From Myxococcota bacterium (GTDB lineage: Bacteria; Myxococcota_A; UBA9042; PHBI01; JAWLBL01), in contig JAWLBL010000021.1 of the NCBI GenBank assembly GCA_041687695.1, positions 138,982 to 170,531 on the forward strand: 31,550 nt of DNA, written 5' to 3'. Positions within the stretch are counted from its first letter, which is position 1. Each line of letters begins with the position of its first letter. This document shows positions 14,194 through 20,100 of the stretch, one piece after another. A program made the position numbers.

Positions 14194-17100
14194 GAGCACC
14201 GGCGGGTCGAGGGCCAGGGTGCGGGCCAGGGCCAGGCGCTTGCGCTCGCCGCCCGAGAGGGTCGCGACGTCGCGGCCGGGGGCGAGGCCGACCTGGGCGA
14301 GCAGGGCGTGGGCCCGCTCGGTGGCGTCGGCCGGGCGGGCGCCGTGGGCGATGAGCGGCCAGGCGACGTTGTCGGCGGCCGAGCGGCCGGCGAACAGGCC
14401 CTCGCGCTGGAAGACGAAGCCGACGCGGGCGCCGCGGACGCGGTGGCGCATGAGGGCGCGCTCGTCCAGGGCCAAGAGATCCAGCGGGTCGGTGTCGGCC
14501 GCGTGCAGGTGGACCTGACCGGACAGCGGGCGCGGGGTGGCGGGCGGGAAGTAGCTGCCCTCGACGCGGCCCAGGAGGCTGAGCAGGGTCGACTTGCCGC
14601 TGGCGGACGGGCCCAGCAGGAGCGTCGTGCGGCCGGCCGGCAGGTCGAGGGCGGGGACCTGGAGCCGGAAGTCGGGGGCGACCTGCCAGGCGAGGTCGCG
14701 GATGGCGAAGGCCGGCGTCATGGTCGTCATGCCGGTCACCCGAGCAGCGCCACGATGAAGGTCGTGAAGACGTGGTCGGCGACCAGGATGAGGAAGCTGG
14801 CGATGACGACCGCGCTCATGGTGTGGCGGCCGAGGTCCGCAGCGTCGCGCTTGTCCTGCAGGCCCCACTTGCAGCCGAAGGCGGCGATGATGAGGCCGAA
14901 GCCGCCCGCCTTGAGCAGGCCGCAGGCGAAGTCGACCGGGGCCAGGGCGCCCACGGCGCGGTTCAGGTAGTGCACGGGCGACAGGCCGAGGCGCGCCGAG
15001 CCGAGGATCATGCCGCCCAGCAGGCCCAGCATGATGGCGGCCACGGTCAGCAGGACCGTGCCCCAGACGCAGGCGAGGACCCGCGGGGCGACCAGCTCGC
15101 GGTCGATGTCGATGGACAGCGAGCGCATGGCCTGGGCCTGGCCGCTGAGGGTGACCATCCCCAGCTCGCTGGCCAGGCCGGCGCCGGCCTTGCCGGCCAT
15201 CAGCAGGGCGGTGAAGACGGGGGCCAGCTCTCGGACCAGCGAGACCGAGACGATGTCGGCCACGAGGTGAGCCGAGCCGAGGCGGGCGAGCTGCAGCGAG
15301 GTCTGCAGGGCGATGACCATTCCGGCGAACAGAGCGGCGATGCCGACCAGCGGCAGGGCCGACAGGGCGACCGTGCCGAGCTGCTGCGTGACGTCCGAGG
15401 GGCGCAGGCGCGGCAGGGCGCGCGCGGTCCGGCCCAGGACGAGCAGGTAACACAGGCTCTCGTGGCCGAAGCTCGCGATGGCGCGGGCCGGGTTCAGTCG
15501 TCACCTCGAGGCGGGGCGGCGGGCGCCGCGGTCATGGGGAGAGCCCCTCGACCCGCAACAGCACGGTGCCGTGCTGGCCTTCCCGGAAGCTCAGCTCGAG
15601 GTCTTCGGTGGCGCCGGGGGCGACCGAGGGGAGCTGGACGGTGACGACGCCGATGGTCTCGTCGCTGAGGGCGTCCGAGTCCATCAGGGTGGCCATCAGG
15701 GCGCCGCTTTCGTGCACGTCGAAGACGAAGCTGTCGTTCCAGGTGGGCGCGGGGCCGTCGGCGATGGAGGTCTTCTGGCGCTGGGAGTCGTACTCGAGCA
15801 CGACGTAGGCGTCGGTGGTGCCCGGGCCGGCGTCCATGTCGGGGATGTCTTTACCGCTGACGACGGTCAGGCGGACGCGGCGGGCGGGGGCCGGGGCGGG
15901 CGGGGGCGCGGCGGGGGCGGCTGCGGCCGGGGCGTCGCCGGTGGTGGCCGAGGGGGCGGGGGCGGCCTGCGAGGCGCCGCGGTAGCGGGCCAGGGCCTCG
16001 GGGTCGGGGGCGGCCTCGGGGGCGCAGGCGGCCAGGGCGGCGCCGGCGAGCAGGGCCGCCAGCCGGGCGGCCTTGGTGGGGTTCTTGGCGGGCGTGACTA
16101 CGTGGTTCCGCATGGCGACCCTTTATGCCACAGTGCGCCCATGAGCGACACCTCGGGCGGCCCCGCGGTCGGGCCGCATGTCTCGGGCGTGAAAGACGAT
16201 CTCGGCGGGGCGGCCCTTCCCGCGCTGCGCACCTCGCTGCCGGGGCCCGAGAGCGTGGCCCTGGTCGACGTGCTGGCGCGCCACGAGTCGCCGGGCGTGA
16301 CGGCGCGGCGGGCGCGGGCGGGCGAGGCGCGCGGCGTCGGCAAGGACCCCATCGTGTGGGCGCGGGCCGAGGGGGCGAACGTCTGGGACGCCGACGGCAA
16401 CCGGTACGTCGACCTGACGGGCGCCTTCGGGGTGGCGCTGGTCGGGCACGCGCACCCGGCGGTGGTCGGGGCGGTGCAGCAGCAGGCCGCGACGCTGATG
16501 CACGGCATGGGCGACGTGTTCCCGAACGCGCCGCGCATCCGGCTGATGGAGCGGCTGGCCGGGCTGGCGCCCGAGGGGCTGACGCGCTGCATCCTGGCGT
16601 CGAGCGGGGCCGAGGCGGTCGAGGCGGCGCTGAAGACGGCGGCCATGGCCAGCGGCAAGCCGGGCGTGCTGGCGTTCTGGGGCAGCTACCACGGGCTGTC
16701 GTACGGGGCGCTGGCGGCGACGGCCTACAAGGCCGACTTCCGGATGCCCTTCCGCGGGCAGCTGGGGCCGCACGTGACCCACCTGCCCTACGGCGAGGAC
16801 CTGAGCCTGGTCGAGCGCCTGCTGGCGGGGCCGGCGACCGGCGGCGAGCACCTGGGCGCCATCCTGGTCGAGCCCATCCTGGGGCGCGGCGGGCAGGTCG
16901 TGCCGCCCGACGACTGGCTGCGCGGGCTGCGGCGGCTGGCCGACCGGCACGGGCTGGTGCTGGTGTTCGACGAGATCTACAGCGGCCTGGGCCGCACCGG
17001 GCGCTGGTGGGCGGGCGAGCACGCCGGGGTGACGCCCGACGTGGTGGTCGTCGGCAAGGCGCTGGGCGGCGGCATGCCGGTCAGCGCGTGCGTCGCCTCC

Positions 17101-20100
17101 GAGCGGGTGATGGCCGCCTGGGGCCACTCGACCGGCGAGGCCATCCACACCTCGACCTTCCTGGGGCACCCGGTCGCGGCGGCGGCGGCGCTGGCGACGC
17201 TGGACACGCTGGTGGCCATGGACGCGCCGGCCCTGGCGCGCGCCTTCGAGGCGCGGGTGCGGGCGCGCTTCGGGGCGCGGGTGCGCGGGCGCGGGGCCAT
17301 GCTGGGGCTCGCCCTGTCGTCGCCCGGCGCCGCGGCGCGGGCGGCCGGGGCGCTGTTGAGAGAGGGCTTCATCGTGCTCCCTGGCGGGGTGGCGGGCGAC
17401 GTCATCGGTCTGACGCCCCCGCTGGTCTTGACCGAGGCGCAACAGGACGCAGCCTTCGACGCGCTGGACCGGGCGATCGCCGACGAGGAGCGCCATGCCG
17501 ACACGACGCGCTGAGCTGCTGGCCGATCTGCTGGCCTTCGTCGCCGCGCCCGCCCCCGCCGCCTTCGACGCGCTGGCCCTGCGGGTCGCCCGCTGGCAGG
17601 CCTACGCCATCGCCCCCTACGGCAAGCTGGTGACCGCCCGCGGCGGGCGCATCGCCCACTGGCGCGACGCCCCGCTGGTGCCGACCGACGTCTTCCGCGA
17701 CCTGGACCTGTGCGACGCCGCGCCCGGGGCCGACCTCGACGCCGAGTTCCACACCAGCGGGACCACCCAGGGCCGCCCGGGCGTCCGGCGCGTCCCGGAC
17801 CTGAGCCTGTACGACGCCGCGATGACGGCGCCCTTCGTGCAGCACGTGCTGGGCGGCGACGCGCAGCCGCGCCCCTGGGTCAGCCTCATCGCGCGCTTGC
17901 GCGACGCGCCGCACAGCTCGCTGTCCTACATGGTCGACCGGCTGGCCCAGACGCTGGCCCACCCCGACACTACCCGCTGGCACATGGACGCCGCGGGCCT
18001 GCACGCCGGCGCCGCCGCCGCCCACCTGACCAGCCTCGCCGCCCAGCAGCGCGCGGTGGTGGTCCTGGCGACCTCCTTCGCCCTGGTGCAGCTCTTCGAC
18101 CACGAGCCGAACCTGGCCGTCCGCCTGCCGCCCGGCTCGCGCGTGATGCTGACCGGCGGCTTCAAGGGCCGCACGCGAGAGGTCACCGAGGCCGAGCTGC
18201 AGGCGCTGGTCCAGGCGCGCTTGGGGGTCCCGCCCGAGGCCGTCGTCCCCGAGTACGGCATGACCGAGCTGTCCAGCCAGGCCTACGGCCGCCCGCTGGT
18301 CGCGCCGCCCTGGCTGAAGCTGCGGGTCGTCGACCCGGTGACGCTGCTGGACCTGCCGCCCGGCGAGGAGGGCCTGGTCGGCTGCTTCGATCTGCTGAAC
18401 CTGGACAACGTCTCGGCCCTGCTGACCAGCGACCTCGGCGTGCTGGACGACGACGACCGCCTGACCCTGCGCGGCCGCGCCCCCGGGGCCCTCCTGCGCG
18501 GCTGCAGCCTGACGGCCGAAGAGCTGGGCGTGGTGCCGTCGTGAGGTCGCGCCGGCCCGCGCTGCTCGAGGGGTTCGGCGACCTCGGCGGGGGCGCCGGC
18601 CGGCAGCTGCTCGAGGCCACCGTCGCGATGGGCTTCTCCGAGCCGGTGGCCCGCGCCGGCCTCCAGGCCGAGCTCGACGCCTGGCACGCCCCCGGCGCCG
18701 TCTCGCGGGTCCTCGAAGAGCTGCCCGGCACCCTCAACCCCGGCCGCCTGCCCCAGACGGCCCTGGTCGTCGCCGCCCGCACCCTGCCCGTCAGCGCGAT
18801 GCGCTCGGTCCTGATGGCGCGCCTACTCGGCGCCCGCGTCCTGCTCAAGCCGGCCAGCGGCCAGGAGGCCTTCGCCCAGGCCGTCGCCGCCGCCGACCCC
18901 GAGGTGACCGCCGCCCTCTTCGCCTCGACCGACCGCGAGGCCCTGGCCGACGCGGTGGCCGCCGCCGACGCCGTCGTGGTCCTGGGCAGCGACCAGACGG
19001 TCGCCTCGGTGCGCGCCCTGACCCGACCCGACCAGGCCTTCGTCGGCTACGGCCACAAGGTCAGCGCCGCCTGGCTCGACGCGCCCACCGACGACGACCT
19101 GCGCGGCCTCGCCCTCGACCTGTGCGCCTGGGACCAGGCGGGCTGCCTCAGCCCCCAGGTGGCCTGGGTCACCGGCGACCTGGACGCCGTCGGCGCCGAT
19201 CTCGCCGCCGCCCTGCGCGAGGTCGAGGCCGACCTGCCCCTGAACATGCCCGCCGCGGCCGGCACGGCGCGTCTGTCGGCCGTCACCCTGGCCGAGATGA
19301 CCGGCGGCGCCTGGCGCACCACCACCGCCGCCGTCCTCCGCGGCCCCTCCCCCGCCTTCAAGCCCTCCCCCGGCTGGCGGACCCTCTGGCTGCTCCCCGC
19401 CGACCCCGCCGCCCTCGCCTCCCTCGCCCCCACCCTCTCGACCCTCGCCGTCACCGGCCCTCCCCCCCCAGTCCCCCCCCACGTCCGCCTCTGCCGCCCC
19501 GGCGAGATGCAGCGCCCCCCGCTCGACTGGCCGCACGACGGCCAACCGAACCTGCTGCCGATGCTGAGACCGGCGCCAGGGCCGCGGTGAGCGAGTTGGG
19601 GCCTACCCCCTTTGCGCGGCCGTGGTCAGGCGCGCCATGGGCGCGTCGTTGCCGGGTGCGAGCTCGGGGCCGGTGAGGGCCAGGCGAGCGGCCAACTGGG
19701 CCTCGAGCCAGCGCGTGATGGCCGGGACGGCCTCGGCGACGTGGTCGTGGAAGAGCAGGTGCCCCGCGCCGCGGAGCGCGAGGTACTCGTAGTGGCGAAG
19801 GCCGGACCAGCGCGTGAAGACCCGCGTCGCCCAGGCCGGGATGGCCGGATCGCGGGTGCCGGACAAGACCAGGGTGGGCGCCTGGTGGGCGGGTCCACGG
19901 GCCCGGAACGAGAAGAGGCTGGCGATGGAAGGCGCGCTGAGGGCGAAGGCGGCGCCGGGATCGTCACGCTGGGTCATGTAGCGGCCGATGACGGGGTCGG
20001 CCGACAGCCTCTCGAAGCCGTGGACGAGCTCGTTCAGCGGGTAGGGCCGCGTCCGATGGCGTCGGATCCACCACGCGCGCAGCCGCATCGACGCCAGCTT

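Follow-up and report, generated by a model that had tools for sequence, protein, structure and literature searches.

Three overlapping genes in a Myxococcota bacterium very probably take the place of QueC and QueF in the making of queuosine, carrying 7-carboxy-7-deazaguanine (CDG) through an aldehyde, and not through a nitrile, to 7-aminomethyl-7-deazaguanine (preQ1). In its wider form, a shade less secure but still well favoured, this reading makes a LuxE/LuxC-type carboxylate reductase with a dedicated transaminase a second de novo route to preQ1, used by the majority in Myxococcota and in at least one more phylum, for which at least two unrelated transaminase subtypes would have been recruited. 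QueC and QueF convert the carboxylate of CDG to an aminomethyl group (PMC5699537), and adenylation, thioester reduction and transamination amount to the same net chemistry, which fits a replacement. Since the module is distributed as a replacement of QueC plus QueF would be, CDG is indicated as its substrate and preQ1 as its product.

The genes lie in a window of 31,550 nucleotides, the whole stretch of DNA that was analysed. As the first-pass annotation had it, they form an operon of three overlapping reading frames on one strand, each with its family match (Table 1); the aminotransferase and LuxE-like frames overlap by 20 nt and the LuxE-like and LuxC-like frames by GTGA. The reported lack of luxAB beside the operon also holds, as no luciferase or LuxD family match was found among the 32 window ORFs scanned. 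Neither luxAB nor luxD emerged as a conserved neighbour when genome loci were clustered, and the operon lacks the luxAB and luxD that mark a luminous lux operon. Only 2 of 49 loci have a luciferase-like monooxygenase nearby, at a distance of a few kb. Rfam scanning gave no match in the window and 20 loci and only tRNAs in 10 further loci, no preQ1 riboswitch was found in the window or these 30 loci, and a sigma-70 promoter search returned no match.

Table 1 Features of the aminotransferase-LuxE-LuxC operon (positions in the window)
Feature	Position	Strand	Basis
Class III PLP aminotransferase, own subfamily	16141-17514	+	ATG start, 457 aa; PF00202 302 bits
Codon of Arg249, aminotransferase; Glu in ArgD and YgjG; subfamily signature	16885-16887	+	alignments; R in 91/97
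Codon of PLP-binding Lys306, aminotransferase	17056-17058	+	sequence; alignment to ArgD/YgjG; invariant
LuxE-like adenylating acyl-protein synthetase	17495-18544	+	ATG start, 349 aa; PF04443 27.4 bits, cut-off 24.9
Codon of Cys337, LuxE-like; equivalent to acyl-carrying Cys364 of LuxE (PMC9157457)	18503-18505	+	sequence; alignment to LuxE
Short LuxC-like acyl-thioester reductase	18541-19590	+	GTG start, 349 aa; PF05893 80 bits
Codon of Cys202, LuxC-like; equivalent to catalytic Cys296 of LuxC (PMC9157457)	19144-19146	+	sequence; alignment to LuxC

The module had been described as core in the order, and the LuxE-like gene is indeed present in 17 of 18 order genomes, the one miss being 67% complete. 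Its range was understated, however, because it is a phylum-wide trait: 250 of 301 phylum genomes have the LuxE-like gene and 242 the aminotransferase ortholog, both nearly always in single copy. Within the order the aminotransferases are 64-80% identical, as stated earlier, and the gene order is mostly kept: the aminotransferase stands directly upstream in 15 of 16 foreign loci, LuxC downstream in 15, and both in 14. A contig end truncates one locus (L017), and G017 has LuxC about 42 kb away. Across the phylum, 27 of 39 loci (retrieved with flanks of about 6 kb) have the complete three-gene order, and all three pairwise fusions exist (aminotransferase-LuxE, LuxC-aminotransferase and LuxE-LuxC); no fusion to a Que protein occurs among the stored proteins. 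LuxE-LuxC pairs without this aminotransferase exist as well and need not have a preQ1 role. Neighbours clustered from 49 genome and 80 metagenome loci are lineage-bound (Mla, Suf, cation efflux-folK, PAPS reductase, aroA-cmk). No relatives of the module were found in viral contigs or annotated phages, and those entries of the M. xanthus essential-gene table (PMC11046052 supplement) that a term search reaches hold nothing on the operon.

The main evidence for a replacement is mutual exclusion with queC and queF. Among the 301 phylum genomes the aminotransferase ortholog and QueC occur together in 3, the aminotransferase only in 239, QueC only in 49 and neither in 10; with strong QueF matches (E<1e-29) the same four counts are 0, 242, 42 and 17. 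If the module is scored by the aminotransferase or a strong LuxE match, they are 4, 245, 48 and 4 against QueC, leaving as exceptions 4 genomes with both QueC and module genes. Weak QueF-like genes occur in 12 aminotransferase-positive genomes, and the 2 inspected are without the catalytic Cys. A candidate replacement of panD (beta-alanine) had fitted perfectly in 5 genomes and failed in 301, and for this reason queC was tested at the 301-genome scale; kept as a control, panD shows no exclusion with the aminotransferase (115/127/27/32). The switch between the two systems also occurs within a single class, where groups f7 and f9 have the aminotransferase (21/23 and 14/14) and no QueC (0/23 and 0/14), while f8, f10, f11 and f12 have QueC in 7/7 genomes and the aminotransferase in 0/7, and single-genome switches are found inside f38 (G153) and f52 (G295 vs G135). 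In a second phylum (71 genomes) QueC is the rule (54/71), yet none of the 6 module genomes (aminotransferase ortholog plus strong LuxE-like gene) has it, against 54 of the 65 others, and QueF stayed under the cut-off in all 5 module genomes tested. The Fisher P values, 1e-42 for the phylum and 9e-5 for the second phylum, are overstated, as related genomes are not independent.

Genomes with the module keep the rest of the queuosine pathway. That of the bacterium studied here encodes two copies each of FolE, QueD and TGT together with QueE, QueA and QueG, and lacks QueC and QueF. Of 77 module genomes, 73 gave a QueE-family match, which was strong (E<=1e-40) in 54 and weak in 19, and 2 of the other 4 have a QueE of the Cx14CxxC type over its cut-off. 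G143 and G241 carry the module with only weak QueE matches, and at the TIGR04349 cut-off only 1 of 80 passed. Matches to the QueD family, which also includes folate-related enzymes (PMC5699537), occur in 57 of 59 module genomes. All 3 module genomes tested for TGT have it over the cut-off, its preQ1-type positions being occupied by Cys and Val (PMC3660597), and QueA and QueG are present in 5 and 4 of 5. Retention thus extends to folE, queD, queE, tgt, queA and queG, as judged for the last three from 3-5 module genomes. Genomes with neither system have no QueE match in 14 of 15 cases (4/4 in this phylum, 10/11 in the second). At one locus (L027) queE lies directly upstream of luxE-luxC, at another (L147) queG lies directly upstream of all three genes, the aminotransferase there being of a different subtype (40% identical), and in one genus folE lies 3-4 kb from the module. 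Over 199 loci (1.6 Mb, duplicates included) such clustering is rare, these two abutting cases and the folE genus being about the count expected in a random 1.6 Mb; of this proximity, only the direct adjacency at L027 and L147 is suggestive.

The same distribution and gene adjacency would be accounted for if the module had another deazaguanine role, making another base from CDG (such as an amide or alcohol) or a non-queuosine base, or acting on tRNA-bound CDG. Chloroflexota fusions of LuxE-like domains to zinc alcohol dehydrogenases, and the absence from the aminotransferase of the C-terminal Arg usual for the amine donor's carboxylate, agree with such a role, but it is improbable: QueA, which requires the amine of preQ1 (PMC5699537), and the preQ1-type TGT residues are kept, the PLP lysine is invariant, and without QueF the pathway could go no further from an amide or nitrile.

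In the preQ1 route, FolE, QueD and QueE would make CDG as usual. The LuxE-like enzyme would adenylate the CDG carboxylate with ATP and then hold the acyl group (from CDG-AMP) as a thioester on the C-terminal Cys337, from which it would pass to Cys202 of the LuxC-like enzyme and be reduced, presumably with NAD(P)H, to 7-formyl-7-deazaguanine, a known compound released by QueF mutants (PMC13740343). The PLP aminotransferase would convert this aldehyde to preQ1, and TGT, QueA and QueG would complete queuosine in tRNA.

The conserved residues are consistent with this chemistry. The LuxE-like family profile matches LuxE (7xc6_E) at 4e-38, and the protein has the features of a PF04443 acyl-protein synthetase: the adenylation Lys/Arg pair (Lys224 163/163, Arg328 160/163), the P-loop SGTT, the C-terminal carrier Cys (Cys337 160/163) and no C-terminal subdomain. 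Its nearest folds (Foldseek) are the aryl-acid ligases PaaK, ClxA and AjiA1. The LuxC-like protein is of the acyl-thioester reductase type (PF05893, catalytic Cys in an ALDH fold), and Cys202 is kept in 109 of 109 aligned sequences. The curated cut-offs of the LuxE and LuxC equivalogs (NF052244, NF052251) lie far higher, at 550 and 750 bits against scores of 24.3 and 27.2.

The first-pass annotation had proposed that the three genes turn a fatty acid into an aldehyde and then an amine. The acid-to-aldehyde-to-amine chemistry, without light, and the joint action are supported by the kept catalytic residues and the pairwise fusions, whereas the fatty substrate is not supported, and a pathway from a long-chain fatty acid to an amine, as for the tambjamine tail, is now very improbable. 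It is true that, by sequence, luminous LuxE and LuxC are the nearest relatives of solved structure, that the aminotransferase has Leu186 in place of the Arg used to bind a distal carboxylate, so that an uncharged substrate is possible, that a reductase with a class III transaminase yields a C12 amine in TamH (PMC9594044) and TabE/TabA (10.1101/2025.08.11.669332), and that an Mla-like transporter lies upstream of the operon in the order. The Mla neighbours do not extend beyond the order, however, clustered neighbour ORFs from about 80-90 aa up include no conserved ACP, LuxD or fatty-acid gene, and a fatty-amine role would leave unexplained why the module and queC/queF mirror each other in two phyla. 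The LuxC-like protein is, as noted earlier, about 130 aa shorter than the luminous type (349 aa vs the 477-residue chain of 7XC6). Its profile matches LuxC (7xc6_A, 7e-38) over chain residues 65-443 only, and residue 443 corresponds to 454 in the numbering of PMC9157457 (offset fixed by Cys296), where C-terminal residues 454-488 of luminous LuxC form a hydrophobic L-shaped cleft for the fatty chain. It therefore stops where the C-terminal cleft element of a fatty acyl reductase (460-488) starts, and members have a tail of 9-22 residues beyond the HDG motif (36 of 64, where the motif was located). The LuxE-like pocket has an invariant Ser-Ser-Leu where luminous LuxE has another motif.

The aminotransferase is a class III PLP enzyme of fold type I, with PLP Lys306, Asp277 and phosphate-site Thr339 each kept in 97/97 sequences and a predicted structure (pLDDT 92) of GABA-AT/ArgD fold (TM 0.83 to GABA-AT). 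Asp125 (90/97), Leu186 (87/97) and Arg249 set it apart, and a D-L-R signature is common to most of 121 representatives. The family is currently labelled GABA or acetylornithine transaminase. Least credible is an unrelated small-amine housekeeping route (ornithine, lysine, GABA, beta-alanine, aminolevulinate) with the exclusion a lineage accident and preQ1 salvaged: the best sequence matches are ArgD, putrescine and GABA transaminases and many TGT-bearing bacteria without synthesis genes salvage precursors (PMC5699537), but the enzyme scores under the cut-off of each of the 25 NCBIfam families shown, the Arg, Glu and Arg found in the ArgD/GabT site give way to Leu186, Arg249 and a small residue at 423, panD and the module vary independently, and the exclusion recurs in the second phylum. 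Salvagers, moreover, could do without QueD and QueE; module genomes retain both, while genomes with neither system lack QueE, and this argues against salvage. A hemA replacement was rejected, hemA being present in 3/3 module genomes, and judged by active-site residues alone, Arg, Lys and Pro routes appear unlikely.

As a functional counterpart of QueC (preQ0 synthase, EC 6.3.4.20) and QueF (nitrile reductase, EC 1.7.1.13), the module would share their substrate, product and pathway place, and like QueC would begin with ATP activation of the carboxylate, although the two systems are unrelated in sequence and family. QueC and QueF proceed via amide and nitrile with nitrogen from ammonia, whereas the module would proceed via a protein thioester and an aldehyde and would draw its nitrogen from an amino donor by PLP chemistry. 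It would probably use one ATP, one NAD(P)H and the donor, where QueC and QueF require two ATP-dependent steps and then a four-electron reduction (PMC5699537, PMC13740343). Luminous LuxE-LuxC (PDB 7XC6) is homologous and shares the Lys/Arg pair, carrier Cys and reductase Cys, but has the cleft C-terminus and luxAB/luxD and lacks the aminotransferase partner. The tambjamine cascades TamA/TamH and TabQ/TabE/TabA likewise combine activation, thioester reduction and class III transamination, but they need an ACP-bound chain, the TamH reductase is of the acyl-ACP type and not LuxC-type, and they sit in secondary-metabolite clusters, while the module is single-copy and near-core. EhpF/EhpG and Vibrio cholerae RfbN resemble the module in pairing a short adenylating enzyme with an aldehyde-dehydrogenase-type partner for non-fatty acids, yet have no aminotransferase step and serve secondary metabolism or O-antigen. 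EhpF and EhpG, which belong to phenazine tailoring, reduce a phenazine carboxylate. EhpF (3l2k) is among the LuxE-like fold matches at 12% identity. PMC11278526 annotates ehpF and ehpG as such an enzyme pair, and PMC4772473 assigns RfbN a LuxE domain. The passages of PMC4772473 on a Riemerella luxE-like deletion report that it mostly raised ribosomal-protein genes and left queA unchanged (1.09-fold by qPCR); the deleted gene is only a possible ortholog of the module gene, and the result does not count as support.

ArcS, QueF-L, Gat-QueC, QueH and FolE2 are precedents for non-orthologous replacement in deazaguanine pathways, and in the accessible portions of the literature searched no CDG to preQ1 replacement appears among the interchangeable enzymes. 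A whole-word search found no publication linking queuosine with LuxE, and searches on queuosine, QueC or QueF in Myxococcota or Myxococcus, and on queuosine with LuxC or aminotransferase, found no description of this route. The literature searched derives preQ1 from CDG only via QueC then QueF and treats bacteria without them as salvagers (PMC5699537). If the proposed route is correct, roughly four in five of the Myxococcota sampled, together with some bacteria from other phyla of soil and water, would make queuosine by a route that has gone unrecognised. Queuine is a micronutrient that eukaryotes must obtain from bacteria, and the route would change who counts as its supplier. It would also explain what a widespread subfamily of luxE/luxC genes without luciferase does, placing enzymes so far annotated for fatty acids or bioluminescence in housekeeping tRNA modification, and would give a role to a transaminase family under GABA or acetylornithine labels. 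The three enzymes would further constitute a natural cascade from a heteroaryl acid to an amine that needs neither CoA nor a carrier protein.

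The aminotransferase gene (AT) of the window is followed by a LuxE-like and a LuxC-like gene, with overlaps of 20 nt between the first two and 4 nt between the last two, and the operon thus has the reading frames, order and overlaps described in the first-pass annotation. Among the NCBIfam families listed, no cut-off was reached by any of the three proteins, those of the Lux equivalogs being missed widely. The Mla-type cluster upstream is conserved at this position in the order only, its MlaE assignment resting on homologs at other loci, and the methyltransferase and desulfurase genes downstream are not conserved as operon neighbours.

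Features of the window in and around the three-gene operon
Feature	Position	Strand	Remarks
Aminotransferase	16141-17514	+	457 aa; Pfam Aminotran_3
LuxE-like gene	17495-18544	+	349 aa; Pfam LuxE, cut-off barely exceeded
LuxC-like gene	18541-19590	+	349 aa, GTG start; Pfam LuxC
Mla-type cluster	13352-16113	-	divergent C2-domain protein, MlaE-like ORF, ABC ATPase, MlaD protein
Methyltransferase, then 2-thiouracil desulfurase/DUF1722 protein	21981-23911

The operon had been called core in the order. For the order this holds, with the LuxE-like gene in 17 of 18 genomes as had been reported, and of 16 foreign loci, 15 have the AT upstream and 15 have LuxC downstream (first-pass counts, 13 of 13 and 12 of 13). 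The range is wider, as the LuxE-like gene occurs in 250 of 301 genomes of the phylum (four of them weak, distant matches) and an AT ortholog (profile from alignment A3, E<=1e-120) in 242, both nearly always in single copy. Both are present in 239 genomes, AT alone in 3, LuxE alone in 7 and neither in 52. The full three-gene order is seen in 27 of 39 phylum loci viewed with flanks of about 6 kb, and in split operons the missing gene lies elsewhere in the genome, with LuxC located in 5 of 5 such cases. Fusions of AT-LuxE, LuxC-AT and LuxE-LuxC are known, and a complete genome of 1.8 Mb (G111) retains the operon. Named relatives come from Myxococcota/Deltaproteobacteria MAGs and one Gemmatimonadota MAG; atlas look-alikes from Verrucomicrobiota, Acidobacteriota, Vulcanimicrobiota and Gemmatimonadota are leads only. 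Distribution and fusions form the pattern of a housekeeping module, and a known essential step was therefore sought that is absent where the module is present.

Such a step is the conversion of 7-carboxy-7-deazaguanine (CDG) to preQ1 by QueC and QueF in the queuosine pathway. QueC, searched as TIGR00364 in the same 301 genomes, was found in 52, and a strong QueF in 42; weak QueF-like matches came from another 14. AT and QueC coincide in 3 genomes (AT only 239, QueC only 49, neither 10), and if module-positive genomes are defined by AT or strong LuxE, in 4 (module only 245, QueC only 48, neither 4). AT and strong QueF never coincide (AT only 242, QueF only 42, neither 17); counting all QueF matches, they do so in 12 genomes (AT only 230, QueF only 44, neither 15). 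The control gene panD shares 115 genomes with AT (AT only 127, panD only 27, neither 32); it had seemed complementary to AT in five genomes and proved independent of it at the 301-genome scale. As the genomes are related and not independent, P values overstate the exclusion. The switch between module and QueC recurs within the class (families f7 and f9 versus f8, f10, f11 and f12) and also within families (genome G153 in f38, G295 in f52). It recurs, too, in a second phylum, represented by 71 genomes close to the Gemmatimonadota MAG. Of these, 54 carry QueC, one being the unpublished genome G364, whose omission leaves the outcome unchanged. The AT profile matches 7 of the 71, of which 6 have a strong LuxE-like gene; QueC is found in none of these 7, and QueF is below cut-off in all five tested. 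The seventh match, in G342, combines a canonical active site with the lack of a LuxE-like gene and is unlikely to be orthologous.

Other parts of the pathway are widely present in module genomes. A QueE-family match was found in 73 of 77 searched (54 strong, 19 weak), with a single one passing the TIGR04349 cut-off; the Cx14CxxC type of QueE exceeds its cut-off in two of the four misses and in one weak case, and does not in the remaining two misses (G143 and G241). QueD-family genes occur in 57 of 59, in a family described as also taking in folate enzymes (PMC5699537). TGT passed its cut-off in all three genomes tested, with Cys and Val at the preQ1-type positions as matched by motif, residues reported to mark preQ1-using enzymes (PMC3660597), and QueA was found in 5/5 and QueG in 4/5. 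The window's own genome contains FolE, QueD, QueE, TGT, QueA, QueG and five GUN tRNAs; searches of it for QueC and QueF found neither. Some of its genes are duplicated, with two copies each of TGT (one adjoining queA) and FolE and a tandem pair of QueD-family genes (C9:124122-126280, C10:175619-176653, C17, C7, C20:68874-69767). The small genome G111 has a seemingly broken queG, in two pieces with an in-frame stop (G111:C1:855693-856165), and keeps queD, queE, module, tgt and queA. Where QueC and module are both missing, QueE is absent in 4 of 4 genomes of the phylum and 10 of 11 of the second phylum (the sole exception, G328, has a strong QueE at 4e-67). A CDG-making genome therefore has either QueC or the module, with few exceptions.

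None of the four genomes carrying both QueC and module genes has a strong QueF, and their QueC may therefore serve preQ0 for another purpose. In two of them (G205 and G259) queC lies within a queC-queE-folE2 cluster (loci L201 and L202) that looks like an acquired deazaguanine island; the G205 cluster also contains queD and a second queC. Some genomes have QueC with neither QueF nor AT (f8 and f10, at L200, L207 and L208; G106 of f49), and the neighbours at those three loci gave no hint on the missing step. These represent either a further pathway gap or another use of preQ0. In module-positive genomes of f40, f46 and f54 there is a QueF-like protein of greater length that lacks the catalytic Cys (in f40, L204:4519-5175 and L205:4118-4774). 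QueD-family searches gave no match in the two f40 genomes tested, and as a guess this protein might stand in for QueD.

Gene neighbourhood by itself gives weak support for a queuosine role. At locus L027, luxE-luxC is immediately preceded by a co-oriented queE (283.8 bits, cut-off 300), the AT ortholog lying elsewhere in the genome, and at the metagenomic locus L147 a queG over its cut-off directly precedes AT-luxE-luxC. These are 2 cases in 199 loci, in addition to folE a few kb away in one genus; a preQ1 riboswitch was not found in the window and loci scanned. In two second-phylum genomes, 17-tRNA arrays lie within a few kb of the stand-alone AT (L257:1489-3556, L258:11035-13318).

Within the window AT the PLP site is normal in the alignment, and the protein represents a distinct subfamily of its own. 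Leu replaces the carboxylate-binding Arg of ArgD, Arg249 stands where ArgD and YgjG carry Glu, the C-terminal Arg is absent and Asp125 is near-invariant; at a guess, Asp125 and nearby aromatics read the guanine face. A second AT subtype beside luxE/luxC in four loci (L123, L147, L158, L161; 55-68% mutual identity, 32-41% to the window AT) has Asp at the carboxylate-Arg position and keeps the Glu switch and C-terminal Arg. At L161, a D-Tyr-tRNA deacylase and a SpoU methylase are close to it. LuxE-LuxC pairs whose LuxE falls in the subfamily of the window protein also occur without AT, on plasmids of Pantoea dispersa (L222) and Azospirillum lipoferum (L223) and at L145, L146 and L152, partnered by an SDR, ABC transporter or xanthine permease, and possibly act in nucleobase salvage or catabolism. 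In proteins P0124-P0142, several named Chloroflexota, a zinc alcohol dehydrogenase is fused to the same LuxE-like domain, a predicted acid-to-alcohol variant. Both pairs and fusions are related modules.

LuxE is described with an adenylation Lys and Arg and a C-terminal carrier Cys (PMC9157457), and the LuxE-like family keeps K224 in 163/163 aligned sequences and R328 and C337 in 160/163. Its model (pLDDT 93) is closest by Foldseek to the aryl-acid ligases PaaK, ClxA and AjiA1, with EhpF ranking lower, a comparison limited for LuxE itself, which is only partly resolved in 7XC6. The LuxC-like family retains the catalytic Cys in 109/109, and its profile covers LuxC chain residues 65-443. As 443 corresponds to 454 in the numbering of PMC9157457, the protein stops at the start of the oligomerisation segment 454-488, of which 460-488 are assigned the long hydrophobic cleft (PMC9157457).

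The first-pass annotation had proposed that a fatty acid is turned into an aldehyde and then an amine. That chemistry is retained, and the proposed substrate becomes CDG on account of the QueC/QueF distribution; we infer all substrates from distribution and chemistry. The CDG carboxylate would be adenylated and passed on by a thioester relay, hydride reduction of the thioester would yield 7-formyl-7-deazaguanine, and transamination would give preQ1. The net change would thus equal that of QueC and QueF, which are described as converting the 7-carboxylate of CDG to the aminomethyl group of preQ1 (PMC5699537; PMC10516641); 7-formyl-7-deazaguanine is reported to be released by QueF mutants (PMC13740343). 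The module would work like LuxE-LuxC with a transaminase joined, and like the TamA/TamH cascade (PMC9594044; 10.1101/2025.08.11.669332), and is a member of neither system. Very probably, it constitutes a new alternative route within the known queuosine pathway.
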